In this document: positions 18,599 to 52,526 of the stretch, one piece after another
How the letters are laid out: every line of letters starts with the position of its first letter
Position numbering within the stretch: position 1 is the first letter of the stretch
Source of the DNA: an uncultured bacterium
GTDB taxonomy: Bacteria; Auribacterota; Erginobacteria; Erginobacterales; Erginobacteraceae
Direction: 5' to 3'
Assembly: GCA_964465735.1 (NCBI GenBank)
Contig: CAYXKT010000002.1
Span: 472-64,471 of the forward strand
Length of the DNA stretch: 64,000 bases
Notes under the pieces: model-generated
Database searches by the model: none
The model's input: only the letters and a program-made list of their open reading frames with translations
Told to the model about the DNA's origin: nothing
Position numbers and translations under genes: made by a program

Positions 18599-18647
18599 TC
18601 TTTCCAGATAAGGTTTGAACCCGCTTGTGTACCCGATAAAGGATATA

Positions 18648-18810
18648 ACCTAAGTTGAGCGATTATTGCGGATGAAATGTGCTAAGATTTTGCTGGCCGA
18701 CGGGTTGCGAAAACCGCAGCCATATCCAGGAGATATGGCGAGGATTTTCAATATCCGTTCGGACGCAAAAGATTGGTGCAGTTCGCCGCATAGAATCGCT
18801 CAATTTAGGT
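18648..18810. mobile_element. MITE-like element of about 163 bp with 15-17 bp terminal inverted repeats (copy 1 of 2)
   Basis: acCTAAGTTGAGCGATT...AATCGCTCAATTTAGGt. AT-rich relative to its flanks. Near-identical copy at 52258-52420 (2 mismatches). Intergenic. Confidence 0.6.
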
Positions 18811-18883
18811 ATAATACTATCTTAGTCTGGGTAAAGCAAAAATAAATCGTTGAGAAAGATAACCCGAGGAAGACGACTACCGG

Positions 18884-19777
18884 TTGACAATTCGGGGTCC
18901 GTTCTCCTATTATACAAGTATGAAAGATATTTCTGTCATTATACCGGCTTACAACGAAGAGGCGGGGATCGGGCAAGTGCTGGCGGAGGTGGAGGAAGTT
19001 ATGCGGGGTAGCGGACTTGACTTCGAGATCATCGTGGTCAACGACGGGTCGACCGACCGGACAGCGGAGATTGTCCAGAAGACCGGAGCGGTTCTCCTGG
19101 AGCAGCCGGCCAACCGGGGCTACGGGGCCTCGCTGAAGCTGGGGATCCATCGGGCGAAGTTCGAACGGGTCCTGATCCTGGACGCCGATGGAACCTACCC
19201 GCCGGAAGCGATCCCCCGGTTGCTGGAAAAAGCCGATGACTTCGAGATGGTAGTGGGGTCCCGAACCGGGGAGAACGTTGCCATCCCGGCCTTCCGGCGG
19301 TTCCCCAAATGGCTGCTGAAGAAGCTGGCGGATTACCTGGTGGGGATGAAGATACCCGACCTCAACTCCGGGCTGCGGATCTTCCGGAAGTCGGCGGCGG
19401 AAAAATTTCTTCCCATCCTCCCCGACGGCTTCTCCTTCACGACCACGATCACGGTCGCCTTCCTTTCCAGCAGTCTTCCGGTACACTATGCCCCGATCGA
19501 CTACTACAAGCGTTCCGGGCGTTCCAAGTTCCGCCCGCTTCAGGATACCCTCAATCTTTTAAACCTGATCATCCGGACCAGCCTCTACTTCAACCCCCTG
19601 AAGATCTTCGTCCCTGCCGGCACCTCCCTGCTGGTGGCCGGGTTGGCCCTTCTGGTCCACCGGCTGATCGCCGGGGGGGGAGGGATGGTAACCACGGTGG
19701 TATTGCTGATGGCCGGACTCCAGCTCCTCGCCCTGGGGTTGCTGGCCGACCTGATTGATAAAAGATCCTCCCAATGA
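18884..19777 (+). CDS. GT2 polyprenyl-phosphate glycosyltransferase (ArnC/Dpm1/GtrB-like, membrane-anchored)
   Basis: ISVIIPAYNEEAGIGQVL, IIVVNDGSTD, LDADGTYPPE, and two C-terminal TM helices. The start is either the TTG at 18884 (GAGGAAG 11 nt upstream) or the ATG at 18920 (MKDISVII). Confidence 0.8.
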   Translation: MTIRGPFSYYTSMKDISVIIPAYNEEAGIGQVLAEVEEVMRGSGLDFEIIVVNDGSTDRTAEIVQKTGAVLLEQPANRGYGASLKLGIHRAKFERVLILDADGTYPPEAIPRLLEKADDFEMVVGSRTGENVAIPAFRRFPKWLLKKLADYLVGMKIPDLNSGLRIFRKSAAEKFLPILPDGFSFTTTITVAFLSSSLPVHYAPIDYYKRSGRSKFRPLQDTLNLLNLIIRTSLYFNPLKIFVPAGTSLLVAGLALLVHRLIAGGGGMVTTVVLLMAGLQLLALGLLADLIDKRSSQ

Positions 19778-21195
19778 AGGTTCTTCTGATCAACCCGCCC
19801 CGGGAGAATGAACTGACCGGGAACAATCCGGCCCTGATCGACGAAAGCCGGGGATATAACCCACCCCTGGGTCTGCTTTATCTGGCCGGCTACCTGGAAG
19901 CAAAAACCTCTTATCAAGTCGTGATCTGCGACGCGCAGGTTGAGGAGATCTCCTACCCGCAACTGGGAGAGCGGATCCGGGAGGCCGCGCCCGACCTGGT
20001 CGGACTGACCGCGATGACCTTCACTCTCCTTGACGTGATCAAAACCGCTCGGCTGGTCAAGGAAATCTCCCCTTCCCTGCCGGTGATGGTCGGCGGGGTC
20101 CACGCCTTTCTCTACCCGGAGGAGACCGTTAACCTCCCTGAGATTGATTATGTCTTGAGCGGTGAGGGAGAAGAGAGTTTCGCCCTTCTCCTGGACCGGC
20201 TGGAGAATCAGGGCGACCTCAATACCGTTCCCGGCCTGACCTACCAGAAAGACGGCCGGATCTGTTCCAGCCCAGCCCCGCCGCTCTGCGCCGATCTCGA
20301 CTCCCTCCCCTTCCCCGCGCGGCAGCTCACTCCCTGGCAAAAATACAGTTCGGTGATGGCCAAACGGCAGCCGATCACCACGATGTTCACCAGTCGGGGC
20401 TGTCCCTTCCGCTGCTCCTTCTGCGCCCGCCCCCACCTGGGAAAACAGTTCCGCTACCGTTCGGCTGAAAACGTGGTCGATGAGATGGAAGAGTGCGTAA
20501 AGTTGGGGATCCAGGAATTTCTGATCTACGATGACACCTTCACCGTCAACCGCGACCGGGTGCTGGCGGTCTGTGAGGAGATCCGCCGCCGGAAGCTGGC
20601 GATCGGCTGGGATATCCGGGCGAGGGTGGATTGTGTGGACGAAGAGATGCTAAAGCAGCTTAAAGCCACCGGTTGCGAACGGATCCACTACGGGGTGGAG
20701 GCGGGGACGGAGAAGATTTTGCGGGTCCTGAACAAGGGAATCACCAGGAAACAGGCTCGGGATACGATCGCCCTGACCCGGCAGATCGGGATCGAGACTC
20801 TGGCCTACTTTATGATCGGATCCCCAACCGAGACCCGGGAGGATATCCTGACAACAATCCGGTTCGCGCTGGAGCTGAAACCGGACTTCGTGCATATTAC
20901 TATCCTCTGTCCCTTTCCAGGGACCGCAATCTATGAGCAAGGACTAAAGGAAGGCGTCTTCTCCCGGGACCACTGGCGGGATTTCGCCGCCAACCCGACC
21001 CCCGACTTCTCCCCGCCTTACTGGAATGAGCTTCTCTCTGATACCGAGCTACAGGAACTCTTGCAATTAGCCTATAAAAAATTCTATACTCGCCCGTCTT
21101 ATCTCCTGAAAAGAGCTCTCCAGGTCAGATCTCTGCGGGAGTTTAAAACCAAGTTCAATGCCGGCTGGAAAATTTTCCGGATGAAAAATCGGTAA
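19774..21195 (+). CDS. Cobalamin (B12)-binding radical SAM enzyme (class B)
   Basis: 473 aa. N-terminal B12-binding/Rossmann-like region. CxxxCxxC radical SAM motif in TSRGCPFRCSFCARP. ATGA overlap with the upstream GT2. Confidence 0.8.
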   Translation: MKVLLINPPRENELTGNNPALIDESRGYNPPLGLLYLAGYLEAKTSYQVVICDAQVEEISYPQLGERIREAAPDLVGLTAMTFTLLDVIKTARLVKEISPSLPVMVGGVHAFLYPEETVNLPEIDYVLSGEGEESFALLLDRLENQGDLNTVPGLTYQKDGRICSSPAPPLCADLDSLPFPARQLTPWQKYSSVMAKRQPITTMFTSRGCPFRCSFCARPHLGKQFRYRSAENVVDEMEECVKLGIQEFLIYDDTFTVNRDRVLAVCEEIRRRKLAIGWDIRARVDCVDEEMLKQLKATGCERIHYGVEAGTEKILRVLNKGITRKQARDTIALTRQIGIETLAYFMIGSPTETREDILTTIRFALELKPDFVHITILCPFPGTAIYEQGLKEGVFSRDHWRDFAANPTPDFSPPYWNELLSDTELQELLQLAYKKFYTRPSYLLKRALQVRSLREFKTKFNAGWKIFRMKNR

Positions 21196-21416
21196 GGATT
21201 CAAGACCCCCGATCGGCTTATCTCGTCGGATCCAAATGAACACCCGGAATGCTTTGAACTGATTCACCTGCCGGATAAACTGGCAGGAGCCTGGAGAAAA
21301 TAGGGGGGCCGAAATAGCGCCCCCGGCGGGCTTCTCCGGCCGGAGCAAAAATTCTCAGACTACCAGCAGGTAAAACCAAATAAGCTATTATCGGAAAAAC
21401 GGATAAATTAAATCAA

Positions 21417-23474
21417 ATGGCGAAGAAACGGAAAATACGGCCGGAGGCGACGACCCCGGCAGCGATATCTTTTAAGTACCGGCCGACGGCAAAGAAAATT
21501 ATCACCGGCCTCTTTCTGCTGGCAGTGGTTCTCTCTTTCTTTCTCCGATTCTACGACCTGGAACTTAAGCCACTCCACCACGACGAGGGGGTCAACTCCT
21601 GGTTCTTGCTCAACCTGAAAGCTGACTTCCCCGGCGGCTGGACCTACGACCCCTCAAACTATCACGGGCCCTTCCTCTTCTTCACCCATATCATTCCCCT
21701 GGCCATTTACGAAAGCGTCTTTTCGCTACGCTGTATGGTGGCCCTCTTCGGCTCCCTGACCATCTGGCTCCTCTGGCCGCTGCGGCGAAAAATCGGCCGG
21801 GTCGGGGTAACGGCGGCCGCCTTTCTCCTCGCCATCTCTCCCTCCCATCTCTTCTTCTCCCGGACCAACATTCACGAAATTTACCTGGTCTTTTTCACCC
21901 TGGGGACAGTGGTCGGGATTGTCCGACTCTGGGAGACTAAGAAACCAATTTATCTGATCCTGGCCGTCGCCTGCTGGGCCTGGGTGATCACGGTCAAGGA
22001 GACCTACATCATCACCGCCGGGTCCTGGTTCTGGGCCGCAGTCGGGACCTACATCTGGTTCTCCATCACCCGCCGGAATGACGAAATTCCACCCAAATAC
22101 GCGGCCCGAGAAATGGGGGGGTGGCTGAAGACTCACTATGCGGCGATCTGGTTAGCGGCGGGAGTCTTCGTCCTGATTATCATCATCTATTATTCCTCCC
22201 TCTTCACCAGCCTGAAAGGAACCACCAGCGATCTGATCGAAAGCCTGATGATCTGGCAGAAGACCGGGACCAAGGGTGCCGGACACGAGAAACCTTTCTT
22301 TTACTGGTGGTGGCTGCTGCGGGACTTTGAGCTACCGATCTTCATCATCGGGGTCCTCGGACTCGCTCTGGCGACAGTCCGGAGAAACGCCTTTGCCGTC
22401 TTCTGTGTCATCTGGGCGGTAGTGATGTTTTTAATCCATTCCTCAATCGCCTACAAGACCCCCTGGCTGGCGCTTAACTTTATGCTTCCCCTGGTTCTCC
22501 TGGCCGGTTTCTTCTGCGAGCAGCTTTATCGTTCTCTGAGAAAGACCCCGGTACTGGCCGGGGCGGCCGGAGTCATCTTCGCCGGTGGACTTCTGGCCTG
22601 GGGGACCGGGATCAGCCGGACAGTCAATTTCATCGAATACGACGATGATCGCCATATGATCGTCTATTCCCAGACCCGACGCGACCTCAACGACCTGGTC
22701 GCGGCGATCGAGGAGTACGCCCACGAGCAGGGCCAGGGCTACACCACCGAGATCAAGATCGTCTCCGACGAGTACTGGCCGCTCCAGTGGTATTTAAGGG
22801 AATATCCCCGGGTAGGTTTCTGGGGAAAGGTGCTCCCCGATTCCGATGGACCGATCGTGATCGGCCGTTCCACCACCCGGAACGAACTGGAAAAAGTTCT
22901 CCAGGACACCTACTCCTCCGAACTCTACAGTGTCCGGCCGGGGCTGGATCTTTATCTCTACACCCGCCTCCACCGGGGGAGAGTCCCGAAAGAAGAACTC
23001 CCGGCCCCGGAGCCGATGGGGATAACAAAGGCTGATCTCCAACCGGGACTGGTCGGCAGTTACTTCAACAAGGTTAATCCGGTCGGCCGGGCCGACGATA
23101 CCCGGATTGAGGATCAGTTTGAATTTCACTATAACAGCCCGGCGGAGACCAGGGCCGGGCTCGGGTTTTCGCCGCCCTTAAGCATTCTCTGGGAAGGAAT
23201 AATCGAGATCCCCCGGGCAGGGACCTATGTTTTTGCCACCGAGTCCGACGACGGCTCCTGGATCTTTATCGGCGAGCGGCAGGTAGTCGATAACGGCGGG
23301 GCCCACGCAATGCAGTATCGCTCCGGAGAGATCACCCTGGAGGAAGGGTTTTATCCACTGAAGATCAAGTACTTCGAAGTCGGCGGCGGGGCGGTCCTCA
23401 AGGTCTTCTGGTCCCCCCCGGGGGAGAGCGAGGAGCCGATCCCTCCCGGGCGCCTCTTCCACCAGAAACGGTAA
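21417..23474 (+). CDS. Polytopic membrane protein (GT-C-like, LKPLHHDEGVNSWF motif) fused to a C-terminal PA14 carbohydrate-binding domain
   Basis: 685 aa. About 11 TM helices in the N-terminal 400 aa. The C-terminal 145 aa (GLVGSYFNK...DDGSWIFIGERQVVDNGGAH...GFYPLKIKYFEVGGGAVLKVFWSPPG) matches the PA14 domain pattern. The PA14 part spans about 23040-23474. Confidence 0.6.
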   Translation: MAKKRKIRPEATTPAAISFKYRPTAKKIITGLFLLAVVLSFFLRFYDLELKPLHHDEGVNSWFLLNLKADFPGGWTYDPSNYHGPFLFFTHIIPLAIYESVFSLRCMVALFGSLTIWLLWPLRRKIGRVGVTAAAFLLAISPSHLFFSRTNIHEIYLVFFTLGTVVGIVRLWETKKPIYLILAVACWAWVITVKETYIITAGSWFWAAVGTYIWFSITRRNDEIPPKYAAREMGGWLKTHYAAIWLAAGVFVLIIIIYYSSLFTSLKGTTSDLIESLMIWQKTGTKGAGHEKPFFYWWWLLRDFELPIFIIGVLGLALATVRRNAFAVFCVIWAVVMFLIHSSIAYKTPWLALNFMLPLVLLAGFFCEQLYRSLRKTPVLAGAAGVIFAGGLLAWGTGISRTVNFIEYDDDRHMIVYSQTRRDLNDLVAAIEEYAHEQGQGYTTEIKIVSDEYWPLQWYLREYPRVGFWGKVLPDSDGPIVIGRSTTRNELEKVLQDTYSSELYSVRPGLDLYLYTRLHRGRVPKEELPAPEPMGITKADLQPGLVGSYFNKVNPVGRADDTRIEDQFEFHYNSPAETRAGLGFSPPLSILWEGIIEIPRAGTYVFATESDDGSWIFIGERQVVDNGGAHAMQYRSGEITLEEGFYPLKIKYFEVGGGAVLKVFWSPPGESEEPIPPGRLFHQKR

Positions 23475-23616
23475 CTCAAAGCGAACCTTTCGGGGCCCGC
23501 CAGGAAAGTTGATCTCACTTGACACCGGGACTGAAGATCGGGTATCTTTTAATATCTATGGTTGTTTGCCTGAAACCAATTCCGGAGCCCCCACATTCGG
23601 GGAAAAGGAGGAACAG

Positions 23617-24213
23617 ATGCGGATAAAATCATCGAACAGGGCCAAGCGGTTGGCAACAGTTATCCTGACCGCGATCTTTTTCTCCATCGGACTGGGGGGG
23701 TGCCAGGAAACGGGACCGGAGGCTACAACCATTGATGTCGAGAAAATTATCGACTTTACCGGGGTCATCTCGATTACCCTGCCTTCCGGGGAGACCACCC
23801 GGCTCGCTGTCGGCCAGACCCTGATCCCTCTTCCCGCGGATACTCTGGTCGAGATAGTCTCCGGAGAGTCCACCGGGATGCTGGCGGGAAAGATCATTCT
23901 CCTCCGGGAAGATCAGGTTGCCCGGATCATCCGGCCGGGGGTGACCGCCCACCACGTGATCCGTTTCACCGGGGAGTTGAAGATCGTCCTCCCCGACGGC
24001 ACCGTGATCTTCGTTAAGGAGGGGGATCCTCTGCCCATCCTCCCTGCCGGAACCCGGATCGAGGTGATCTCGGGCGAACTGGTAGTACTCTGGGGCGACG
24101 AGCGGATTACCCTGGTCGCCGGCAATGTCGCCTGGATCGAGTTGCGGCCCAAAGACCGACTGTTGGAACTGGAGAGAGGCGACATCAGCCCGGCCAGCCC
24201 GTTTAGACCTTAA
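23617..24213 (+). CDS. Lipoprotein with an internal duplication (two repeats of about 50 aa)
   Basis: Start ATG 23617 with AAGGAGG 6 nt upstream (the ORF-track start at 23509 is less likely). Lipobox LGGC in MRIKSSNRAKRLATVILTAIFFSIGLGGC. Repeats I.LP.G....G..L..LPA.T..E..SGE occur twice. Confidence 0.5.
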   Translation: MRIKSSNRAKRLATVILTAIFFSIGLGGCQETGPEATTIDVEKIIDFTGVISITLPSGETTRLAVGQTLIPLPADTLVEIVSGESTGMLAGKIILLREDQVARIIRPGVTAHHVIRFTGELKIVLPDGTVIFVKEGDPLPILPAGTRIEVISGELVVLWGDERITLVAGNVAWIELRPKDRLLELERGDISPASPFRP

Positions 24214-24236
24214 AACCTTGAGGATGAGGGCGGCCT

Positions 24237-25430
24237 TTGAAACAGTTCAGATCCTTGAACGCTATTCTCCGAGGTGGGTTGGCTCTGGGACTCTTGCTTC
24301 TGCCGGCCCTTTCGGCTCTCGCCCTGGAAATCGGTTCGCCAGGACACGGCATCAGTCAGGGAAGCCTGGTCATCCATCCCCGGATTCAACTCCAGGGAGA
24401 ATATGACGACAATATCTTCCTCACCGACCGGGACCGAAAACAGGACCTGATCGGTATCCTGGTCCCGGGGGTAACCTTGGAATTCCCCTGGGAGAATAAT
24501 CTCCTGCTCCTCGACTACCAGGCCTTGCTCTATTATTATCGGGACTATCCTGATCAGAACCATCAGGACCACCGCCTCCAAGGTCGGATCAGCCTGCTGG
24601 CCGCCCCCTTCTCCCTGAAGGCGGAAGACACCTTCCTCAAAACTTCCTCTCGGGAAAATACCGACTACACCGACCGAGTAGAACGAATTGAGAATATTGC
24701 CCGAGCGGAGCTGATATATTTGGCAAATAAATTCCAGGTCCAGGGGGGATACGAAAATTATCTCTACCGCTACGATGAGCGACCCTACCGTCCCTACGAC
24801 CATACCGAACACCGGGGAATCCTGACCGGGTTTTATCAGGCAGCGCCCAAGACCAAGGCCCTTCTGGAGTACACCCACTCCCGGATCATCTACCGCGATT
24901 ACAAGGATCGCAACGGATACTACAATGAAGTCCGGGCCGGATTTATTGGGGAGATCACCTCCAAGCTGACCGGGACGGCCAAGATCGGTTACCAGGAGCG
25001 GCGCTACCGGGAAGATTCAATCTGGGACGACTATCGGGGGATCGTCGGCTACGCCCTGCTGGAACAGGTTTTTTCGCCTGAGCACGACCTCCGCCTGGCC
25101 TGGGAACGTTCGGTCCAGGAATCAACTTTTTCCGGCAACAGCTATTACCTGCTCAACCGGGCCTGGATCTATTACAGCCGCCAACTCACCCATAAGATCC
25201 GCGGCTTTGCCCGCCTCCAGTACAGCAACTACCGCTACCCCGAAACTTCCTTGGACCGCGGCGGGAAAAGACGGGATAATACCTGGGAACCGGAGATCGG
25301 GGTCAGGTACCAGGTTCAGCCCTGGCTGGCGGCCGAATTCAAGTACCGCTACCGAAACCGCGACTCCAACTGGCCGGATAAGGATTATTTGAATAACCGG
25401 TTTTACCTGGAAATATCGGCGGCGTATTGA
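24237..25430 (+). CDS. Outer-membrane beta-barrel protein, possibly associated with polysaccharide export
   Basis: 397 aa. Signal peptide ...LLLLPALSALALE. Tyr/Arg-rich alternating strand pattern. C-terminus ...LEISAAY ends in an aromatic residue. Located immediately upstream of wza/wzc-like genes. Confidence 0.5.
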   Translation: MKQFRSLNAILRGGLALGLLLLPALSALALEIGSPGHGISQGSLVIHPRIQLQGEYDDNIFLTDRDRKQDLIGILVPGVTLEFPWENNLLLLDYQALLYYYRDYPDQNHQDHRLQGRISLLAAPFSLKAEDTFLKTSSRENTDYTDRVERIENIARAELIYLANKFQVQGGYENYLYRYDERPYRPYDHTEHRGILTGFYQAAPKTKALLEYTHSRIIYRDYKDRNGYYNEVRAGFIGEITSKLTGTAKIGYQERRYREDSIWDDYRGIVGYALLEQVFSPEHDLRLAWERSVQESTFSGNSYYLLNRAWIYYSRQLTHKIRGFARLQYSNYRYPETSLDRGGKRRDNTWEPEIGVRYQVQPWLAAEFKYRYRNRDSNWPDKDYLNNRFYLEISAAY

Positions 25431-25486
25431 CCCTGAATTTTGGCCCTGAAGCGATTTCAGTCCGGACGATAAAAAAGGAGCACAGA

Positions 25487-25540
25487 CGTTCCTGTCTGTG
25501 GAAGCTGGACCACAGGCAGGAACGTCTGCTACTATGGCCG
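25487..25540. repeat. 19-bp near-perfect inverted repeat (hairpin) between the OMP gene and the Wza-like gene
   Basis: CAGACGTTCCTGTCTGTGG (8-nt spacer) CCACAGGCAGGAACGTCTG, one mismatch. Not followed by a T-run. Confidence 0.6.
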
Positions 25541-25620
25541 CCGGTCAGCCTCCTGATGGGTGAATCCGGAAAATATTTATTTTGCCCGGACAATTTGTTT
25601 TCATTATATGACATCAGAAA

Positions 25621-26427
25621 ATGCTATTCTTACGGAACTACAGGACCAACCGGATAAATCGAGAACTTGGATTTATGTTTTTTAAAAAAAAGTCAATTGA
25701 TACGGCTCCCCAGATCCGGCAGGGAATATTCCTTAATCGGACGGGTTTTGTCTTCACGGCATTGTTGATTACCCTCAGTGGCGCTCCTTTTTTCCTGGGA
25801 GGCTGCGGAGGTACTCCGGAGCCCCAGCCGGGTTCCGAAACCATCGATGACAGGAACTTTTTTTACTCGCGGCCGGACGAAGCGGCCGGGGTGAAGCCAA
25901 AAGCCGGGGAGATTGCCGAACCGGTGGACGAGGGGGAGAGCTACCTGATCAATCCCCACGATCTGCTGGATATCTCCGTCCTCGGGGAGAGCGATCTCTC
26001 GCTCACCGTCCGAGTCTCGGAACGGGGTCAGATTTCCTTTCCTCTCCTGGGAGAAGTCCGGGCGGCGGGCTATTCCCCCCTGCAACTCGAACGACAGCTG
26101 GAAGAACTGCTGGGAGCGGATTTCCTGGTCTCTCCCTCGGTCAATGTCACCGTCAAAGAGTCCGGAACGATCTCGGTCCTGGGTCAGGTCAATAAGCCGG
26201 GGGCCTTCGAGATCAAGGGCCGCCTCACCGTCACCCGGGCGATCGCCCAGGCCGGCGGGTTGACCAGTATTGCCAGTCCTAACGGGACCCGTCTGATCCG
26301 CAGGTATAACGGCCGGGAGGAGACCATCCTGATCCGTTTAAACGATATCCTCAAGGATGGAGACCTGGCCCACGACCTCCCCCTCCGCCCCGGGGATTTG
26401 ATCGTGGTCCCGGAAAGCTTTTTTTAA
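25621..26427 (+). CDS. Polysaccharide export protein, Wza/EpsA family (Poly_export + SLBB domains), lipoprotein
   Basis: Lipobox LGGCGG. Poly_export-like YLINPHDLLDISVLGESDLSLTVRVSERGQISFPLLGEVRAAGYSPLQLE. SLBB-like ISVLGQVNKPGAFEIKG...LIRL...GDLIVVPE. An alternative start lies at the ATG of about 25675. Confidence 0.8.
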   Translation: MLFLRNYRTNRINRELGFMFFKKKSIDTAPQIRQGIFLNRTGFVFTALLITLSGAPFFLGGCGGTPEPQPGSETIDDRNFFYSRPDEAAGVKPKAGEIAEPVDEGESYLINPHDLLDISVLGESDLSLTVRVSERGQISFPLLGEVRAAGYSPLQLERQLEELLGADFLVSPSVNVTVKESGTISVLGQVNKPGAFEIKGRLTVTRAIAQAGGLTSIASPNGTRLIRRYNGREETILIRLNDILKDGDLAHDLPLRPGDLIVVPESFF

Positions 26428-26435
26428 AGGAGATT

Positions 26436-28478: not shown

Positions 28479-28607
28479 ATAGTCGCCCCCAATCCAAACC
28501 ACCCCGCTCGTTTTTTGTCCCTACCCGTCATCCTGCGTCGTGGATGCGGGGTTTAGCGCGGGTTGTTTCTTCCATCGTCGAGAGGGATCCGGAGAGCATA
28601 AATCGTA

Positions 28608-32133: not shown

Positions 32134-32157
32134 CCACCCGATCCCGGTTTGACCGGG

Positions 32158-33156
<999 letters not shown>

Positions 33157-33176
33157 TTATTATACCAGTTTGCCCT

Positions 33177-36151: not shown

Positions 36152-36155
36152 CGTC

Positions 36156-37319: not shown

Positions 37320-37340
37320 TTGGCCGGCGGAAATAATGAA

Positions 37341-41174: not shown

Positions 41175-41178
41175 ATAT

Positions 41179-42594: not shown

Positions 42595-42667
42595 GTTCCC
42601 AGTGGAAGATAAATGGTTGGCGGGCCGGTCCGCGGATGGGTCACCGCTTTCCGGCCCCGGAGAGATA

Positions 42668-43720: not shown

Positions 43721-44870
43721 TGTTCGCTCCCCCCAGGAGCCGCAGGTATTCCCCGGTCACCCGGGAACCGTAATCATCCCAGGAAAAGCCGCTGCGGACC
43801 TTCAGTTTCGCCCGCTCCCCCATCTCCCGCCGGAGATCCGGGTCCCGGTAGAGCCGGAGCAGCTTCTCCTGGATAGCTTCCACGTCCCGGACCGGGACGA
43901 TAAACCCCTCTTTCCCCTCCTCGATAAGGTCTTCCCCTCCGGTGTTGGGCGTGCAGATCAACGGCAACCCGCAAGCCATCGCCTGGAGTTGGACCATCGC
44001 CATCCCCTCTTCCAGGGAAGGCATAACAAAGACGCTGCCCCGCGAGAGATACCGATACAGTTCAGATCGGGGCCGGGAGCCGATGTACCTGTATGTCCCG
44101 GCGTACTCTCTCATCATCGGCTTGATCTCATCCGAGATCGTGCCGATGAAGAGAAGCTCGGCCTCCGGCAGCCGCAGTTCCTGGAAGGCCCGCAGGAGAT
44201 ACTGCACTCCCTTGCGCAGGCTCAGGCAGCCAGCGAAGACCACCCGGAAGACCGAATCCCGGCGGGGAACCTGCCGGAATTCCCCGAGGTCGACCCCGAG
44301 GAAGCACCGGATAATCTTCTCCGGAGGAACTCCCTGCCGGAGAAAGGAATCACGGGCGAAAGAACTGGGGACCGCGATATAATCGGTCTCTTCATACTCC
44401 CGCAGTTCTTTCTCCACCAGGGCCGGATGCGGCAGAACACCCCAGCAGCCGAGCCTCTCGTATTCTTCGGCCAAAATTTGCCTTTGGAAGAGGATATGGG
44501 AGCTGCCCCTCTCCAGGACGGTCTTCATCCCCCGGCGTTTCGCCTCCCGGATAGTCCGGAGGCCGAACGACGACCAACCGACCAGCAGATCTCCCCCCGC
44601 CAGCCTGCGGGATGCCTGGAGGTCGAACAGTTCACTGACCAGGCGAACGGGATCGGCCCGGGCGCTGACCGGCTTGGGGAGTTTCCGCCAGCCTCGGTAA
44701 ATCGCCTGGCAGAGAGGCAGGGATATCACCTTCCCGGGGGGGATTCCATATCCTCGGACCCGGGAAGCCGGGTAGCCGGTAATAATCCGCTCCAGACAGC
44801 CCCTCTGTTCCAGCTGCCGGGCCAGTTCAAAGGAATGGAACATCCCTCCCGTTGTCACGGTAACTTTCAT
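43713..44870 (-). CDS. GT4 glycosyltransferase
   Basis: FVMPSLEEGMAMVQLQAMACGLPLICT (EX7E). Start ATG 44868-44870 in an ATGA overlap with the upstream GT4 stop. The ORF-track start is 44954. Confidence 0.75.
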   Translation of the reverse strand: MKVTVTTGGMFHSFELARQLEQRGCLERIITGYPASRVRGYGIPPGKVISLPLCQAIYRGWRKLPKPVSARADPVRLVSELFDLQASRRLAGGDLLVGWSSFGLRTIREAKRRGMKTVLERGSSHILFQRQILAEEYERLGCWGVLPHPALVEKELREYEETDYIAVPSSFARDSFLRQGVPPEKIIRCFLGVDLGEFRQVPRRDSVFRVVFAGCLSLRKGVQYLLRAFQELRLPEAELLFIGTISDEIKPMMREYAGTYRYIGSRPRSELYRYLSRGSVFVMPSLEEGMAMVQLQAMACGLPLICTPNTGGEDLIEEGKEGFIVPVRDVEAIQEKLLRLYRDPDLRREMGERAKLKVRSGFSWDDYGSRVTGEYLRLLGGANNE

Positions 44871-46057
44871 AATTCGGGCAGCGCACGCAGGGCGCGCAAA
44901 ATCTCCTCCACCCCTTTTTGATAATTCCATCCAGAGACCCTCTCCTGGGCCCACACCCCCATCTCCTCCCGAAGTTCGGGAGACTGAGCAAGCCTTCGCA
45001 TCCGGTCGGCCAAGACCCCAACCTCTCCGACCGGACAGATGAAACCGTTCTCCCCTTCGACCACCAGGTCCCCGGCAGTACCGACCCCGTCGCTGACGAT
45101 AACCGGGAGGGAAAAATTCATCGCCTCGTTCAGGGCCCGGGGAGAAGGGTCGTACTCGGAGGGGAGAACGAAGACGTCCCCAGCGACATAGTATCGGGGC
45201 AGCTCAGTCTGGTTCCGGAACCCGGTGATGACAACATTGGTCAGGCGGCGGCGGGCGATCAGGTTCTCCAGGTCCCGGCGCTGCGCTCCTTCCCCAACGA
45301 AGACCAGGGAAGCTTCCGGCGGGTCACCCAGGAGGCGGTAGGCCTCGAGGAGATCAAGAGCGCGCTTGCGGGGATCGAGCTTCCCGGCGAAGAGAAAGAC
45401 CGGGAGACCGGCAGGGAGACCCAATGCGGTTTTGATCTCCTCCTTCCGCGGGGAGAGTTCCCGGGCCCGGGCCTGGAAATATTCATTATCCACCGCGGCC
45501 GGGTTCCAGTAAATCCTTCCCGGATCGGCCCCATAGGCAAGGTAGTAGTCGGCGTTTTTTTCGCACTCGCTCATAACCGCCGACGCCCGTCGGAAGAGAG
45601 GGGTAAGCACCGCCTTTTTTAAGACCCGGAGGGGGGCGGGGCGGCGGGGCCGGGAGACGACATTGCCCCCGATAAAGACCGGGATCCGGAATACCCCGGC
45701 CGCCAGGAAGGCCAGCCAGGCGGTCAGGTAATTGTAGCCCCAGACGAAGACGGCGTCGTAGCCTCCGGAGACAAGCGCGGGGACGATTCCCGGGTTGCAG
45801 AACCTTCCCAGGAGGGGAACCGGCCCCGAATAGAGACCAGCGAGAAACCGGTGGCGGTACCCTTCGAGCAGGGGGAGATCCCATTTGATATCCATCCGGA
45901 AGGTTCGGTCATACGCCGGTTTTTTTGCTCCGCCCTCCCAGCAATAATAGACCGTCAACTCGATCCCGGGATGCCGTTCCATCTCCTGGTAGAGACGGTA
46001 GTAGTACTGGATGGGATGGGTGACCAGGACCGCCAGACGGTATTTTTGTTTCATCAT
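44867..46057 (-). CDS. GT4 glycosyltransferase
   Basis: 396 aa. ...VLPSEYDPSPRALNEAMNFSLPVIVSDGVG (EX7E region). Confidence 0.75.
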   Translation of the reverse strand: MMKQKYRLAVLVTHPIQYYYRLYQEMERHPGIELTVYYCWEGGAKKPAYDRTFRMDIKWDLPLLEGYRHRFLAGLYSGPVPLLGRFCNPGIVPALVSGGYDAVFVWGYNYLTAWLAFLAAGVFRIPVFIGGNVVSRPRRPAPLRVLKKAVLTPLFRRASAVMSECEKNADYYLAYGADPGRIYWNPAAVDNEYFQARARELSPRKEEIKTALGLPAGLPVFLFAGKLDPRKRALDLLEAYRLLGDPPEASLVFVGEGAQRRDLENLIARRRLTNVVITGFRNQTELPRYYVAGDVFVLPSEYDPSPRALNEAMNFSLPVIVSDGVGTAGDLVVEGENGFICPVGEVGVLADRMRRLAQSPELREEMGVWAQERVSGWNYQKGVEEILRALRALPEL

Positions 46058-46065
46058 CGGGCCAC

Positions 46066-46821
46066 TCAGTTTGTTCCCCGGGCTGATGATATCCGGCGTT
46101 TTTCAGTGATCCCCCCCGGTTGCCGATCCTCCCGGTAGGCGGCCAGCCATCGGTTGATCTCACCGTGCCTCTGTTCCGGGACCGCGATCCTCCACCAGGC
46201 GTTGGGGATGATCCGGGTAACATACCCGTGCCCGGCGAGCAGTTCGATACAGCCCCTCTCCAGGTCGAGTGAATGGGTCTCGATCAGCCAGCGGACCCCG
46301 GGCGACTCCAAGAAATCCGCTGCTCCCTGAAGAGCCTCGACCTCGCCGCCGTCGATGTCGATCTTGATCAGACAGGGAAAGTCCACCCGGTCGCGAAAGG
46401 AATCCAGACTAACCCGGTCGCCCCCATCGGTTGAGCCGACAAACTTCCGGGAGATCACGACCTTCTTTTCCCCGGCGGCGGGGTTGAGGGACAGATTCTT
46501 CCTGATCCGGAGACAATGGTCGGCAGAAGGTTCGAAAGCGTAGACCTTCCCAGCCCCGGTTTTGGTCGCGAAGTAGAGAGTGTGTTCCCCGCAGGCGGCG
46601 CCGATATCGATAGCCGTCCTGGCTATCCGGGAAAACTTTTTCAGCCAGGGGTGGGTCTCGGCCTCCCACAGGCCGAGATACAATTGGCACTGATGGCTGA
46701 AATCGATCTCCATCCGGATCCCCCGGTATAACCCGAAGGGTATGGTTCTGGGCTTGCTTCCCTTCGGGAGCCGGAGAATCCGGTTCTTAAGAAAACGGTT
46801 GAAAGCGCTGCCTCGTGTCAT
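46066..46821 (-). CDS. FkbM-family methyltransferase
   Basis: 251 aa. AIDIGAACGEHTLYFA, VYAFEPS, CLIKIDIDGGEVEALQGA, typical of the FkbM family. Confidence 0.75.
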   Translation of the reverse strand: MTRGSAFNRFLKNRILRLPKGSKPRTIPFGLYRGIRMEIDFSHQCQLYLGLWEAETHPWLKKFSRIARTAIDIGAACGEHTLYFATKTGAGKVYAFEPSADHCLRIRKNLSLNPAAGEKKVVISRKFVGSTDGGDRVSLDSFRDRVDFPCLIKIDIDGGEVEALQGAADFLESPGVRWLIETHSLDLERGCIELLAGHGYVTRIIPNAWWRIAVPEQRHGEINRWLAAYREDRQPGGITEKRRISSARGTN

Positions 46822-46849
46822 ATTTTTCTCTTCGTTGGAGAGTTCCCCA

Positions 46850-47581
46850 TCACTTCCGGGCCGCCGTGACCAGGTTGGCGGTGAAGATCCCCCTCCCCTG
46901 CCCGCTCTCCACCATCAGGGCGAACCGCCAGAGGCCCTCGATACCCTTCCAGAATATGGTCCGGACGGCCGACTTCAGGCTGTAGCCAAAGACCGGGGGA
47001 GCGGAAAAGGTGGCGGCACCCCGGAACCCGGCCAGCAGCAGCGCGGCTTCCAGGCTGTAACTGGTAAACCCCGACTCGTGGGTCAGATCTCCCCAGCGGT
47101 AGCGGAGCGAAAAGGGACTCTCAAGGTTGACGGTCTGAATCAGCAGCACACCACCGGTGATCAGGGATTGGCGGACCAGGATCAGCAGATCGATGACTTC
47201 CTCCCGGGTAAAGTGCTCGATCAGGTCCCGGGCGACCACCGCCCCGTAAGTCCCGGGGTGGTCGGCCAGGTGATCCCTGACGTCCCCCCGGATTATACCC
47301 TCGATCCCCAGCGAGCGGGCAACGGCCACCTGTTCCCCGCTGATATCGATACCCCTGACGTCGGAATATCCGGCCCGGCGGAGATAGTGGACAAAGCCGC
47401 CGCTTCCGCAGCCGACATCGATCAACGGTGTGGAGAGATCCCGGGGAAGATGCCGCCGGAACCGGTTCTCCCAGACCGGAAACTGCCTCTCGATCGCCTC
47501 CAGGGTGATCTCCGGCCGAGCCGGTCGAGGCCGGATCTCATAGTTCTCGTACAACCTCTTCCTGTACTCTTCTCTCTCCAT
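46850..47581 (-). CDS. Class I SAM-dependent methyltransferase
   Basis: 243 aa. LIDVGCGSGGFVHYL, VRGIDIS, LIEHFTREE. Confidence 0.75.
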   Translation of the reverse strand: MEREEYRKRLYENYEIRPRPARPEITLEAIERQFPVWENRFRRHLPRDLSTPLIDVGCGSGGFVHYLRRAGYSDVRGIDISGEQVAVARSLGIEGIIRGDVRDHLADHPGTYGAVVARDLIEHFTREEVIDLLILVRQSLITGGVLLIQTVNLESPFSLRYRWGDLTHESGFTSYSLEAALLLAGFRGAATFSAPPVFGYSLKSAVRTIFWKGIEGLWRFALMVESGQGRGIFTANLVTAARK

Positions 47582-47715
47582 CTGACCCTCCCGGATTCCG
47601 CCGCCGGTGAAGAACAGCGGGGCGGGGTTTTCCCGCTTTGAATACTATACACGGCCCGGGCCGGCAATCAAGGATAGAGTAGCCAGGCGCCCCCTTACCG
47701 GGCGTCCCTATCCGG

Positions 47716-49194
47716 TCACCGCCCGGGGAAAATCCGGCCCGCCGCCAGGGACAGCAGGACCGTCAAAAGAAGGGCATTGGCGGGGATGGCGAAGTTGAAG
47801 TTAAGCGCACTCTGGAGAAGCAGACCCAGAACCCCGGCGGAACAGCCGGCGACCAGCCCTCGTCCAGCTATCGGCCATCCCCCCGGACGTTTCCGCGGGT
47901 GCCCCGGGTAAGTACTGTCCGGTTTCCAGAACAAAACCGAACCAAAGAATACCAGGAAGAACCCGGTCAGGCCCACCAATCCCCAGGTCCCCATCTCCGC
48001 CGCAACCTGGAGGTAATCGTTCTCGGCGTGGGTAAACGGTTTGCGGCGATCAAAGGACTTGTAATAGGGATATAACTTCTCGAATCCCCCCAGACCGATC
48101 CCCAGGAGCGGGAAATCCCCGTAGATCCGGATGGTATCCCGCCAGATGTCCCGCCGGTACTCCACCTCCTTCCCCTTTCCTCCGATCGTCTCAAAACGAT
48201 GGACCAGGTCGGCGGTCCCGAAGTAGGCCAAGCCCAGGGCGATCAGGACCAGAGAGACAACGAAGATCATCAGGGACTGCTTCCGGTCGATCAGCCGGAA
48301 GCGGCGGGAGATCAAGATCAAATATACAAAGGCGAGAAGACCGGCCAGTATCCCGCTCCGGGAATAGGAGAGAAAGAGGGAAACCGCCATCACCAGGGCC
48401 ATAAAGCCGAGCAGGAGACGCCGGGGTTCGGACCGGACCATCCGGTCCCGAAAAAGCTCCCCGGCCGGCCGGGGCCGACGGCTCAGGAGCAGGCCCAGGG
48501 CGAGGGGGATGACCATTATGATATAGCCGGCAAAATGGTTGCGGTTGACGAAGGGACCGAAGGGATTCCCGAAGCGGATCGGGCGGAGCCAGTAAATCAT
48601 ACCCTGCCAGGAGTACTTCTGGAGAATCCCGATCACCGAGACGGCAAAACCGGTAGCGACAACCGCGGTCAGCAGCCGGGCGGTGAATCCCATCCAGTTC
48701 CCCTCCGCCGGCCGGTAGCCTTTCAGGGTGTAAAAGATCGCTCCGTAGGCCGCCAGCCTGACCAGCTCCCCGGCGGTCCGGGAAGGGTAAAGGGAGAATA
48801 CCGTCCAGGAACCGGAGGTGACCCGCCCGGTCAAAAGCCAGAACCGGGCGGTCCGGGGACTGATCGCGGAGACCAGGGTGACCGGAAGCGGGATCAGCTG
48901 GACCAGCGGGCCGAGGAGAAACAGAATTCCGAACCCGCAGAGCAGATAATCGGCGACCGGGCGGCACGCCGTTGGCGAAAGAGCCCCCGAAAGAGAAGGA
49001 ATTCGGACGAGCAGATGCCGGCGGTAACGTTCGGTCGCGGCAATCAGGAAGCAGCCCGCGGACAGGATAATCCAGGCCCAGGTCTCGACCGCCCCGAAGG
49101 CCAGGGGGGAGAAGACCACCAGGAAGACGGCTCCCCACTCGACAATCCGCTCGCACCGGCGGATCTCCTTCGGAATTGTTAAACGCTCATCCAT
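47716..49194 (-). CDS. O-antigen ligase family (Wzy_C domain) membrane protein
   Basis: Polytopic membrane protein. Large periplasmic loop carrying FLSYSRSGILAGLLAF (the SRSG motif typical of the WaaL/O-antigen-ligase family). I chose the start at the ATG of about 49194 (MDERLT...) to avoid overlap with the upstream GT4. The ORF-track start is 49305. Confidence 0.55.
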   Translation of the reverse strand: MDERLTIPKEIRRCERIVEWGAVFLVVFSPLAFGAVETWAWIILSAGCFLIAATERYRRHLLVRIPSLSGALSPTACRPVADYLLCGFGILFLLGPLVQLIPLPVTLVSAISPRTARFWLLTGRVTSGSWTVFSLYPSRTAGELVRLAAYGAIFYTLKGYRPAEGNWMGFTARLLTAVVATGFAVSVIGILQKYSWQGMIYWLRPIRFGNPFGPFVNRNHFAGYIIMVIPLALGLLLSRRPRPAGELFRDRMVRSEPRRLLLGFMALVMAVSLFLSYSRSGILAGLLAFVYLILISRRFRLIDRKQSLMIFVVSLVLIALGLAYFGTADLVHRFETIGGKGKEVEYRRDIWRDTIRIYGDFPLLGIGLGGFEKLYPYYKSFDRRKPFTHAENDYLQVAAEMGTWGLVGLTGFFLVFFGSVLFWKPDSTYPGHPRKRPGGWPIAGRGLVAGCSAGVLGLLLQSALNFNFAIPANALLLTVLLSLAAGRIFPGR

Positions 49195-49231
49195 ATTCTC
49201 GGGTTTTCGCGCCGCGGAAGGGGGATCGACC

Positions 49232-50359
49232 TCAGGGGAGCCCGAACTCCGCCAGGAGCCCGGCGACTTTTTCCCGGAAGGCTTTTCTCCCGAAGTACCG
49301 GTCAACCCGATCGTGGAGCTCGGCCGGGTCCGGAGCGGTCTCGGTCAATAACCGCCGCAACCCCACCTCGAGTTCTTTCGGACTCTCCGGATCGACCAGG
49401 ATGCCCAGTTCCCCTCCCCGCAGGGCGTCCGCTGCCGCGTCCCGGTTCCCGCCCAGGCACCGCTTTCCGCATCCCATCGCCTCCAGGAAAACAATCCCGA
49501 ACCCTTCCCGGAGACTGGGCATCGCGAAACCGTCGGCCATCCGGTAATGATCGGGCAGTTCTTCGTCGGAAATATACCCGGTTAGGATCACCCTCCCCTC
49601 CAGCCCCAGCTCACGGACTCTCCGTTCGACGTTGGGGCGATCGTCTCCCTCCCCTACGATTAAAAAGCGCAGTCCCGGAAAATCCGGAAGCAGACGGGGC
49701 AGGATCTCAATGACTCGGGAGTATCCCTTGTCCAGCCGGGAGACCACCAGGCGACAGACGCTGATCAACACCCTGTCTTTAGGATCAATCCCATAGCGCT
49801 GCCGCAGCCCGGCCGGGGCCGGTCCGGGCGAGAACCGTTCCCCGTCAAATGTGACCGGGATCACCCGGAACCTTTCTTCCGGGATACCGATCCCGGCCTC
49901 CATCTTTCCCCGGGTAAAATTGCTGATCGGCAGAATCATATCCACCCGGCCCAGCGCCCGGCGGACCCGGCCCCGGGGCAGGTCCCAGACCTCAACCCCG
50001 TAGGCGCTGACCGCCGCCGGGATCGAGAGAGTTCTCTTCAGCCAGGCTGCCGCCGGAGCAAAGTGGGGATGGGCGGAGATGACCAGCGCCGGTCTTTCCC
50101 GCCGGGCGGCCCGCAGCAGCCGGGCCGCGAAGATCGGGGTCCGGACTCGCTCGGGCATATCCCCCGAGGCGGAGATCCCGACGCTCTCCCCGTAGCGCTC
50201 CTCCAGCTCTCCCGGCCGGTCGGACTTGCTCAACAGGCGGATCCGGCCGGGCCCGAGAACGGCCAGGGCCGCCTCCGTCAGCTCCGCCGAGTAATTCTGG
50301 ATACCCCCCACCCGGGACAACAGTTCCGGCACCCAGATATGGAGTACCCCGCTGTTCAT
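49232..50359 (-). CDS. GT4 glycosyltransferase (first gene of the long minus-strand operon)
   Basis: 375 aa. ...MPSLREGFGIVFLEAMGCGKRCL (EX7E). Confidence 0.8.
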   Translation of the reverse strand: MNSGVLHIWVPELLSRVGGIQNYSAELTEAALAVLGPGRIRLLSKSDRPGELEERYGESVGISASGDMPERVRTPIFAARLLRAARRERPALVISAHPHFAPAAAWLKRTLSIPAAVSAYGVEVWDLPRGRVRRALGRVDMILPISNFTRGKMEAGIGIPEERFRVIPVTFDGERFSPGPAPAGLRQRYGIDPKDRVLISVCRLVVSRLDKGYSRVIEILPRLLPDFPGLRFLIVGEGDDRPNVERRVRELGLEGRVILTGYISDEELPDHYRMADGFAMPSLREGFGIVFLEAMGCGKRCLGGNRDAAADALRGGELGILVDPESPKELEVGLRRLLTETAPDPAELHDRVDRYFGRKAFREKVAGLLAEFGLP

Positions 50360-50551
50360 AACTTCAATCCATTACCTCTCTCTTCCATCATCCCCGATTT
50401 CCGGTTAATCAGGAGAAACTCTGGTCATCGGGAAATTTGAGTCTAACGCCCCTCTGACCGACCATCAGCGGATAATGCCGACGGCCTTCACTGATATCAG
50501 GATACCGGGACAACGGTGGGAATTGTATCTATTCTCTCCCGAACCGGAAAG

Positions 50552-50586
50552 AAAAAAACCGGGCCCGCCTCTTGGCGGGCCCGGTT
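50552..50586 (-). terminator. Rho-independent terminator downstream of 50616..52037
   Basis: On the minus strand: perfect 11-bp GC-rich stem CCGGGCCCGCC / GGCGGGCCCGG with a 5-nt loop, followed by TTTTTTT. Confidence 0.8.
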
Positions 50587-50615
50587 CTTCCTGACTTGCT
50601 GTTATGTTGCGGTTA

Positions 50616-52037
50616 TTAGTAGCCCGTGGCTCCGGTGACGATCACCGCGGCCGACTCATTGGGCGCGAGGGTATCGGTACCGACATTCCGGATAATCCAC
50701 TGGTCGGGCGAACGGAAGACCGTCAGGTCGACAACTCCGTCCCCGTCAAAATCTCCCACCACCGGGACGTCGCCGCTATTGCCCCAGACTGCGGTATCAT
50801 AGCCGCCGACCCCGTCGCGCCGGATCCACCAGAACCTGTTGTCGGCCGGCCGGTAGGCGCCAAGGCAAGAATACCCCGAGACATAGGCGCCCGGGACCGG
50901 GATATCGCCGCTCAGACCCCAGGCCCGGCTGCCGGGCACGCCGTTGACGAACCAGCGCCAGGTGCCGTAATCATCCGTGTTGATGACGGCGATGTCGGTC
51001 GTCCCGTCGCCGGTGTAGTCGCCCGGAACCGGGATCACACCGTCATAACCGTAGAGGATTGAGGTAATGTTCTTGACGTACCAGTAACCGTTGGAGGGCC
51101 GCCAGACAGCCAGGTCGGTCGTTCCGTCGCCGTCGTAATCGCCCGGCACCGGAACGTCGCCGGCAATACCCCAGACTTCGCCATCGATGATGGCTCCGCC
51201 GCCCACGCTCTGGGCAAACCATTCTCCGGTACCCCGGTCGAAGTAACCCAGGTCGGCTCTGCCGTCACCGTCATAGTCGCCGGGGGCCGGGACATCGTAC
51301 TCACCACCGCCGAAGGTCTCGGTGCCGATCCCTTCCAGCTGCCAATCGCCGCTGGATTGGTTGTAAAAGGCGGCATCGGTCATCCCGTCTCCACTGTAGT
51401 CGTCACTGGCTTTGACCAGATAAATCGGGGAAGGCGCGGGCGCCGGGGGTGCCGGCGGGGCCACGGTGGTAACATTGGTGATCGCCACATCGTCGATCAC
51501 GACATTGTCGGCATCGACCTTCAAGTACTCGATCTCCACCTGCTGGGAGGAACTGGCGTTGAGGGCCATAGTAATGATTCCGCCGCCGAGGCTGTGAGGC
51601 CCGGGCAGCCAGGAAAGAACGGACCAGTCGGCGCCGTTATATTCCCGGACCTGGATCGCGCTGCTCGGGTTGGCGCCAATGGCCTGGAGGTAGAAGCTCA
51701 GGTCGCTGTCGCCCGGGACGCCGTCCAGAGTGTACTCCTCGGTAATGATCCGGGAGCGGGCGGTCCGGCCCAGCTGGATACTCGGTACACCAGACAACGG
51801 ACCACCATATAACATATCAGCGTCCGAGTTCCGGTTGCAATTGATGAATTCCCAGCCGTCGGGGCGGACCCCGATCTGGAAGTTGTCGAAGCCCTCATTG
51901 ATCTGGGCCGTGGCCGACAGGCTGAGACAGACTGACACCACAATCATTACCGCCAATACCATTATTCCACGCTTCATACTAACCCCCTTCAGGTAGGGTT
52001 GTGTCCCGTTGCGGGGACTTGGTAATATGAAATACAC
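50616..52037 (-). CDS. Secreted protein: N-terminal unassigned domain of about 135 aa plus FG-GAP/VCBS-like repeats, C-terminal ...VTGATGY
   Basis: 473 aa with a signal peptide. N-domain INEGFDNFQIGVRPDGWEFINCNRNSD..., homologous to four copies in the giant protein. Repeats [60 protein letters not shown]. Confidence 0.7.
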   Translation of the reverse strand: MYFILPSPRNGTQPYLKGVSMKRGIMVLAVMIVVSVCLSLSATAQINEGFDNFQIGVRPDGWEFINCNRNSDADMLYGGPLSGVPSIQLGRTARSRIITEEYTLDGVPGDSDLSFYLQAIGANPSSAIQVREYNGADWSVLSWLPGPHSLGGGIITMALNASSSQQVEIEYLKVDADNVVIDDVAITNVTTVAPPAPPAPAPSPIYLVKASDDYSGDGMTDAAFYNQSSGDWQLEGIGTETFGGGEYDVPAPGDYDGDGRADLGYFDRGTGEWFAQSVGGGAIIDGEVWGIAGDVPVPGDYDGDGTTDLAVWRPSNGYWYVKNITSILYGYDGVIPVPGDYTGDGTTDIAVINTDDYGTWRWFVNGVPGSRAWGLSGDIPVPGAYVSGYSCLGAYRPADNRFWWIRRDGVGGYDTAVWGNSGDVPVVGDFDGDGVVDLTVFRSPDQWIIRNVGTDTLAPNESAAVIVTGATGY

Positions 52038-52163
52038 CTAATTCCCGATTATTTACCATTTTCCTCCTGATCGTCCCAGAGGTCAAGAGAAAAATTGATT
52101 TTTTTGAAAATATTTGAACATTTGTAAAACTTTAGCCTTTGTTGCTATCTGCAGCACTTCTGA

Positions 52164-52225
52164 TTGTCATTGCGAAAAATCTCAACCTGAAGATTGCTTC
52201 GTCGCCTTCGGCTCCTCGCAGTGAC
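52164..52225 (+). repeat. Repeat element copy E (diverged)
   Basis: TGTCATTGCGAAAAATCTCAACCTGAAGATTGCTTCGTCGCCTTCGGCTCCTCGCAGTGAC. Same architecture: GTCATTGCGA ... GATTGCTTCGTCG ... CCTCGCAGTGAC. Confidence 0.5.
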
Positions 52226-52257
52226 AATTGCAGACTTATAAAACTGTAGAGACTTTT

Positions 52258-52420
52258 ACCTAAGTTGAGCGATTATTGCGGATGAAATGTGCTAAGATTT
52301 TGCTGGCCGACGGGTTGCGGAAACCGCAGCCATATCCAGGAGATATGGCGAGGATTTTCAATATCCGTTCGGAGGCAAAAGATTGGTGCAGTTCGCCGCA
52401 TAGAATCGCTCAATTTAGGT
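52258..52420. mobile_element. MITE-like 163-bp element with terminal inverted repeats (copy 2 of 2)
   Basis: Same sequence as 18648-18810, differing at 2 positions. Lies between the two tandem paralogous genes. Confidence 0.6.
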
Positions 52421-52526
52421 TTTATAGAGTTGAAGTGTTACTGACATTTTAACCATCGCACATAAAATCCAGCGATGTCGAGAGTCAAACCTGATTTATT
52501 TCCTGGCTTCGGTTTGCGGCTCCGTT

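Follow-up and report, generated by a model that had tools for sequence, protein, structure and literature searches.

Introduction

Several families of miniature inverted-repeat transposable elements (MITEs) are known from bacteria, among them Correia/NEMIS in Neisseria, ERIC/IRU in enterobacteria and RUP in Streptococcus. They are about 100-300 bp long, non-coding and bounded by inverted ends and short target-site duplications. They occur in many copies in intergenic regions and form long hairpins; the transposase of an insertion sequence (IS) mobilises them in trans. Here, two near-identical repeats, copies A and B, are described from a 64,000-nt stretch of DNA (the window) of an uncultured bacterium assigned to the Auribacterota (GenBank contig CAYXKT010000002.1, positions 472 to 64,471). 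Both are, with a probability of about 0.92, a 161-bp non-autonomous MITE whose ends are those of an IS1380 subgroup that is deep and widespread. A formerly unexplained repeat can thus be annotated as a mobile element, for which exact boundaries, a TWWWA target motif (W, A or T) and a parent family are given.

The window element resembles the classical bacterial MITEs in size, non-coding body, ends, duplications, copy number, intergenic sites and hairpin. It differs from them in its parent, IS1380, and its 5-bp TWWWA duplication, whereas classical MITEs belong to families such as IS630 and duplicate, e.g., TA. Its family is found in uncultured anaerobic-sediment lineages, unlike the classical MITEs with their different hosts. 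The element is of an ordinary kind, a classical bacterial MITE, but its parent family is one for which no published MITEs were found: No paper describing IS1380-derived MITEs was retrieved from the searchable literature, which is an incomplete set and lies apart from ISfinder, and the terminal sequence itself is absent from this literature, too. Two features are more unusual, an exact 16-bp end across transposases of about 40% identity and many phyla, and a covarying, strand-asymmetric hairpin.

Within the IS1380 family, the ends can be compared to those of ISEcp1, its best-known member. In ISEcp1 from the E. coli plasmid NZ_LT985286.1, the left inverted repeat (IRL) is CCTAGATTCTACG and the right inverted repeat (IRR) CCTAAATTCCACG. 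The MITE end CCTAARTTGAGCG resembles both of them. The MITE end CCTAAATTGAGCG and IRR both start with CCTA, as IS1380-family repeats do, and in the right terminal repeat of copy A the first 8 nt are identical to IRR. The ISEcp1 transposition unit is flanked by the 5-bp duplication TATGA (PMC2887853), which is of the same T...A type as the duplications of the MITE. End sequence, duplication length and T...A target match ISEcp1 and, therefore, agree with IS1380-family transposition. Compared with ISEcp1, ISPme1, IS1247 and IS1380, the window element is only 161 bp long, lacks a transposase and displays no internal similarity; unlike in these IS elements, its entire body is a conserved hairpin. 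ISEcp1 and ISPme1 have an outward promoter and perform one-ended gene capture (PMC9330008), neither of which is seen for the window element. IS1380 transposases also serve as prokaryotic outgroup of piggyBac (PMC10813416). The TTAA target of piggyBac-derived eukaryotic MITEs resembles TTAAA, the commonest target found here, but piggyBac duplicates 4 bp in eukaryotic hosts and the window family 5 bp in bacterial hosts.

Boundaries and target sites of the two copies in the window

The repeats had been predicted at 18648-18810 and 52258-52420 as 163-bp elements with two differences. An alignment with 50-bp flanks confirms the two differing positions (18710 A / 52320 G and 18764 C / 52374 G). By contrast, the length has to be corrected to 161 bp: One base has to be trimmed at each side, so that the true element starts with CCTAAG and ends with TTTAGG, and the outer A and T are target bases. 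Copy A spans 18649-18809 and copy B 52259-52419. Both lie on the plus strand, the 'top' strand, which folds better and has the IRL-like end at the left. They are identical at 159 of 161 positions. With a divergence of 1.2%, both are recent insertions. The terminal inverted repeats of copy A are located at 18649-18664 (plus strand, CCTAAGTTGAGCGATT) and 18794-18809 (minus strand, CCTAAATTGAGCGATT read inward), those of copy B at 52259-52274 (plus) and 52404-52419 (minus). In copy A, the two 16-bp ends pair at 15 of 16 positions with a single mismatch, G vs A at position 6; the inverted termini noticed before are real. A terminus search allowing up to three mismatches found only the four ends of copies A and B in the 64-kb window (chance expectation 0.37), and no further copy of the element was detected there by blastn.

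Both window copies are flanked by a perfect 5-bp target-site duplication, and the pentamer is different in each case. It is TATAA for copy A (18644-18648 and 18810-18814) and TTTTA for copy B (52254-52258 and 52420-52424). The original prediction had stated that duplications were not obvious. They were overlooked because its boundaries were one base too wide per side. It was correct in placing both copies in intergenic DNA: Copy A has a divergent epimerase gene on its left (17612-18598, minus) and a GT2 gene on its right (18920-19777, plus), and copy B is located in the spacer of tandem FG-GAP paralogues (50616-52037 and 52527-53900, both minus) that are 76% identical overall. The GC content of the element amounts to 48%. 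This means, it is AT-richer than the host DNA, as was claimed, when measured against the window mean of 59%, but GC-richer than the surrounding intergenic DNA with 39%. An ATG-initiated open reading frame (ORF) is not present within the element. ORFs starting with TTG or GTG are present but do not exceed 59 aa, and the sequence variation across the family of 159-161 bp tracks hairpin pairing, not codons.

Two copies in one window could also be the result of local segmental duplication or gene conversion, or of repetitive extragenic palindromic (REP) sequences and bacterial interspersed mosaic elements (BIMEs) spread by REP-associated tyrosine transposases (RAYTs), instead of DDE transposition. 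The element is palindromic, there are just two copies in the window, and copy B is located between tandem paralogues that themselves were born of duplication. However, the similarity between copies A and B breaks off sharply at both inverted termini, their flanks are unrelated, and each copy has its own 5-bp duplication. REPs are 20-40 bp long and are not known to produce target duplications, and more than 120 listed matches to the family described below are at unrelated sites in other genomes. Such an origin is, consequently, extremely improbable.

Copy A is also encountered in short-read data. Seven Logan contigs from six runs (L118-L121, L252-L254), which stem from independent assemblies and hold genes beside copy A, all break 23-25 bp inside it, four of them coming from the left and three from the right (18649-18673 and 18787-18809). 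As these contigs enter copy A, the insertion is present in all six runs. The position of the breaks suggests that they result from a repetition of the element within those samples. The element appears to fragment short-read assemblies of copy A's population systematically.

The family in other genomes

A pattern derived from the conserved core was used to gather the family, and all counts in this section refer to the matches listed. More than 120 metagenome matches were obtained. In addition, full-length homologues are present at about a dozen loci in metagenome-assembled genomes (MAGs) of the Desulfobacterota type, where they are 72-78% identical to copy A. The further copies that the original prediction had called for are, hence, plentiful, and elements of this kind are numerous in uncultured lineages from sediment, those of the sulfate-reducer type among them.

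From all loci, 97 complete copies at 78 unique sites were extracted. The modal size is 159 bp. A perfect 5-bp duplication is found at 56 of the 78 sites and one with a single mismatch at 11 more; permuted flanks gave 7.8 on average and 16 at most. Duplications of other lengths are almost absent at these sites. Together with the two window copies, this provides the duplications over more copies that had been proposed as a check. The consensus of the duplication is T-W-W-W-A, with T in position 1 and A in position 5 in 55 of 56 cases each, and TTAAA is the commonest pentamer. The 10-bp flanks of family copies have an AT content of 80%. None of 80 sites, both window sites included, is located inside a long ORF.

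The few pentamers that deviate from the T...A pattern, GAATA and TCTTG in MITEs and GAGAT and TAGCT in full-length IS copies, are still duplicated as a whole. It follows that the duplication comprises 5 bp and the element 161 bp; a 163-bp element with a 3-bp duplication, which was considered as well, is excluded by these four cases. The outer A and T common to both window copies reflect target preference.

Within one sample series, Ga0255432, 11 family matches are distributed over 10 contigs. The nearest relative of the window variant (L152 1512-1675, contig Ga0208905_1000143) is 93% identical and resides at an unrelated locus. One of its termini is mutated (CTTAAG), and its duplication contains one mismatch (TTTAA / TTTAG).

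Full-length elements with the same ends encode IS1380 transposases

The original prediction had suggested a search for an IS element with matching terminal repeats. Such elements exist, and they encode transposases of the IS1380 family. At three loci (L076, L098 and L028), the same 16-bp ends are 1728, 1728 and 1766 bp apart and enclose ORFs of 461-467 aa, of which the L028 copy is frameshifted. Two of the three are flanked by duplications, GAGAT and TAGCT. The intact ORFs of L076 and L098 match the model NF033539 'IS1380 family transposase' with 218 and 195 bits (NCBIfam cutoff 180) and Pfam PF13701 with 111 and 86 bits. A truncated element of 1444 bp was found in L090, and transposase fragments homologous to these proteins adjoin the same terminus in L053, L001 and L050. 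The transposases beside identical ends share only 37-43% identity with each other. When the L098 transposase was compared to a plasmid collection at E<=1e-5, plasmids carrying ISEcp1 were not among the matches.

Five-bp duplications in AT-rich targets are also known from Tn3-derived inverted-repeat miniature elements (TIMEs), which have non-autonomy in common with the window element. Tn3-family repeats are about 38 bp long and start with GGGG, and Tn3-type transposases comprise about 1000 aa. By contrast, the ends described here have 16 bp and start with CCTAA, and the full-length relatives encode IS1380-family transposases of 461-467 aa. With both ends and transposase family different, an assignment to the TIMEs, an established class (PMC4133298), is hardly conceivable.

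The 16-bp terminus is identical or nearly so in L076, L098, L028, L053, L001 and L242. The hosts of these six loci are, by MAG label, Spirochaetota, Bacteroidota, Acidobacteriota, Aegiribacteria and Desulfovibrionales. Constant ends combined with diverged transposases suggest either a strong constraint on the ends or transfer across phyla. Since the 16-bp end remains constant while the transposases diverge to about 40% identity, it lends itself to simple searches for members of this IS1380 subgroup and for their many miniature derivatives.

L242 (1250-2976; NZ_CP026539.1, about 62164-63890) is an IS1380-like element of 1727 bp, which is carried by the plasmid pDCAR1 in a cultured strain, Solidesulfovibrio carbinolicus DSM 3852. 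The element terminates in CCTAACCTGAGCGATT and CCTAAATTGATCGTTT, the flanking pentamers TTTTA and AATGA do not match, and no gene is listed at this position in the PLSDB table. It might be an experimental handle on this IS1380 subgroup. Another locus, L046, was considered as parent IS because it has 30 bp in common with the left end of the family. It was rejected, as it shows neither transposase homology nor a partner end.

A conserved, strand-asymmetric hairpin

Over its full length, the element forms a single long, imperfect hairpin with -84.7 kcal/mol (z = -10) for the plus strand and -64.8 kcal/mol for the minus strand. This hairpin is real and conserved. In an alignment of 12 family members, 93.7% of the cells are paired and 12 pairs exhibit compensatory changes on both sides. 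Shuffled controls yielded 4.8 +/- 1.5 such pairs, and 0 of 500 reached 12; when the partners were slid, at most 5 such pairs were obtained. Most of the covarying pairs in this alignment are located outside the terminal repeats. In 74 distinct copies, 96.4% are paired and 15 pairs are compensatory (shuffle mean 5.1, maximum 10). RNAalifold proposes alternative local hairpins in the centre for the same 74 copies. The long hairpin is preferred because its pair counts exceed those of the shuffled and slid controls.

The 74 copies contain nine majority G.U pairs and no majority A.C pair, and this accounts for the folding advantage of the top strand. The advantage amounts to 20-30 kcal/mol in most copies of the 159-bp family. 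A similar asymmetry of 15-28 kcal/mol is found in most copies of an unrelated family of about 208 bp with the same ends. As the top strand is favoured under RNA and under DNA parameters alike, folding energy does not separate an RNA hairpin from a hairpin in single-stranded DNA (ssDNA).

These data bear on the second identity that had been proposed, a structured RNA. In that case, the repeats would primarily be an RNA gene or a cis-regulatory RNA such as a terminator, a stabiliser or a small RNA and would be retained because of this function, and the transposon-like ends would be secondary. The very stable plus-strand fold, the compensatory pairs above controls in both the 12 sequences and the 74 copies, the G.U pairs without A.C counterparts that indicate one folding strand, and the asymmetry that is family-wide and recurs in an unrelated 208-bp family are all in accord with an RNA. 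However, most sites carry 5-bp duplications, IS elements that encode a transposase have exactly these ends, and the insertion sites are mutually unrelated. The orientation towards neighbouring genes is unbiased (left +23/-20, right +27/-21). A scan for sigma-70 promoters and terminators revealed nothing convincing inside the element and no promoter-like site. Rfam 15 gave no match, neither in the whole window at gathering score nor in 18550-18910 at E<=1. Furthermore, the DNA energy parameters yield the same strand asymmetry, which is, therefore, not RNA-specific, and recent single-sided changes show only a weak excess of G.U over A.C (18 vs 14 pair types). We regard an RNA gene as improbable. 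As an identity, the structured RNA of the original prediction finds no support, but a conserved hairpin does exist.

For the hairpin of the MITE, three candidate explanations can be put forward: Selection could act on a single-stranded intermediate, a perfect DNA palindrome could be avoided with pairing retained in one strand, or there could be an RNA effect at the level of the host. Any role of the hairpin would have to be deduced from these patterns. It is conceivable, though rather doubtful, that IS1380-type mobilisation, or tolerance by the host, acts on a folded single strand, be it top-strand ssDNA or RNA. Selection would then extend beyond the 16-bp ends to the structure of the body. 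In a related scenario, co-option would have turned these MITEs into intergenic RNA hairpins. In any case, the strand-asymmetric covarying hairpin provides a testable hint that the structure of the element matters.

Proposed mobilisation by an IS1380-type transposase

Taken together, the window element is short and non-coding, has inverted ends, duplications of fixed length and many copies at unrelated loci, and possesses the ends of an autonomous IS. A parent in the IS1380 family is indicated by the transposase model, which scores above its cutoff in the full-length elements outside the window, by ends like those of ISEcp1 and by the 5-bp duplication. The principal claim of the original prediction, a MITE moved by a transposase encoded elsewhere, is supported by the copies, the matching IS ends and the duplications, from which mobilisation itself is deduced. 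We propose that a DDE transposase of the IS1380 type, encoded elsewhere in the genome or in the community, would bind the 16-bp ends CCTAARTTGAGCGATT and insert the element into AT-rich intergenic TWWWA pentamers, thereby duplicating those 5 bp. Mobilisation would occur in trans: With no transposase in the window, it presumably has to come from elsewhere.

Five observations weigh against this proposal. First, an IS1380 transposase is encoded neither in the 64-kb window nor in any fetched locus carrying the MITE family. Second, the full-length elements with identical ends originate from other phyla and have nothing but the ends in common with the MITE; consequently, they do not identify the mobilising partner. 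Third, exact look-ups of the flanking proteins recovered no empty (pre-insertion) site: Three of the proteins are not on record, and the recorded ones are on contigs that end inside the MITE. Fourth, a central 30-mer of the window element has no exact match in JGI metagenome contigs, so that the exact window variant is not countable elsewhere. Fifth, the conserved, strand-asymmetric and covarying hairpin exceeds the needs of a simple MITE model in which two ends are enough.

Other miniature elements with the same terminus

The terminus CCTAARTTGAGCGATT was scanned in one genome per species, and at least 117 loci were listed. For a 16-mer with one two-fold position, several hundred chance matches are expected in 596 Gb. 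Therefore, every match was tested individually. The following statements apply to the matches listed. Nearly all of them are in MAGs of anaerobic-sediment lineages. By MAG label, the hosts belong to Desulfobacterota, Nitrospirota, Scalindua, Bacteroidota, Chlorobium, Nitrospinota, Gemmatimonadota, Deferribacteres, Spirochaetota and Acidobacteriota, and the labels span at least nine bacterial phyla. Next to the terminus, on its outer side, an A is found in nearly all cases, within AT-rich flanks. Roughly every second terminus is paired with an inverted one at a distance of 43-309 bp, in most cases with a 5-bp duplication. The interiors of the dozens of short elements defined in this way fall into many unrelated groups. 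This means, the terminus is common to many different miniature elements.

The shortest elements of 43-67 bp comprise hardly anything beyond two IS1380-type ends placed back to back. They are found in L011 (1506-1548), L023 (44 bp, minus strand), L019 (70-115), L065 (46 bp), L039 (7458-7509), L009 (433-487) and L047 (202-268), and several are flanked by duplications, TCTCA, TAACA and TATTA. Possibly, these count among the smallest elements of the MITE type; alternatively, they could be deletion derivatives.

The same ends also bound another abundant MITE family, which is about 199-211 bp long and has the inner sequence TTCAAGTTTGCCGCAGATACAAGG. Examples of this family of about 208 bp are located in L061 (4603-4811) and L072 (5120-5318), and in L049, L095, L106, L115 and others. 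It also occurs on viral contigs of IMG/VR (L244, L246), with a 209-bp copy flanked by a TTTGA duplication. The group with TTCAAGTTTGCCGCAGATACAAGG in L061 and L072 was considered as the end of an autonomous IS. This was rejected, as the inward ORFs are ordinary host genes; the group is a separate MITE family.

One exact match to the terminus (L054, 1387-1402) is on a contig labelled as Methanobacteriota archaeon, and no partner end was found over a distance of 4.4 kb. Chance, a solo end or a binning artefact might account for this match.

Neighbouring genes in the window

The FG-GAP paralogues that flank copy B share a long, nearly identical central stretch (residues ~280-385 of their alignment). 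This suggests a recent duplication or gene conversion of these genes. Further along the window, a very large ORF of 2616 aa is located at 56051-63901 on the minus strand. The region around it has a higher GC content of 65-66%, and the GC skew changes sign there.

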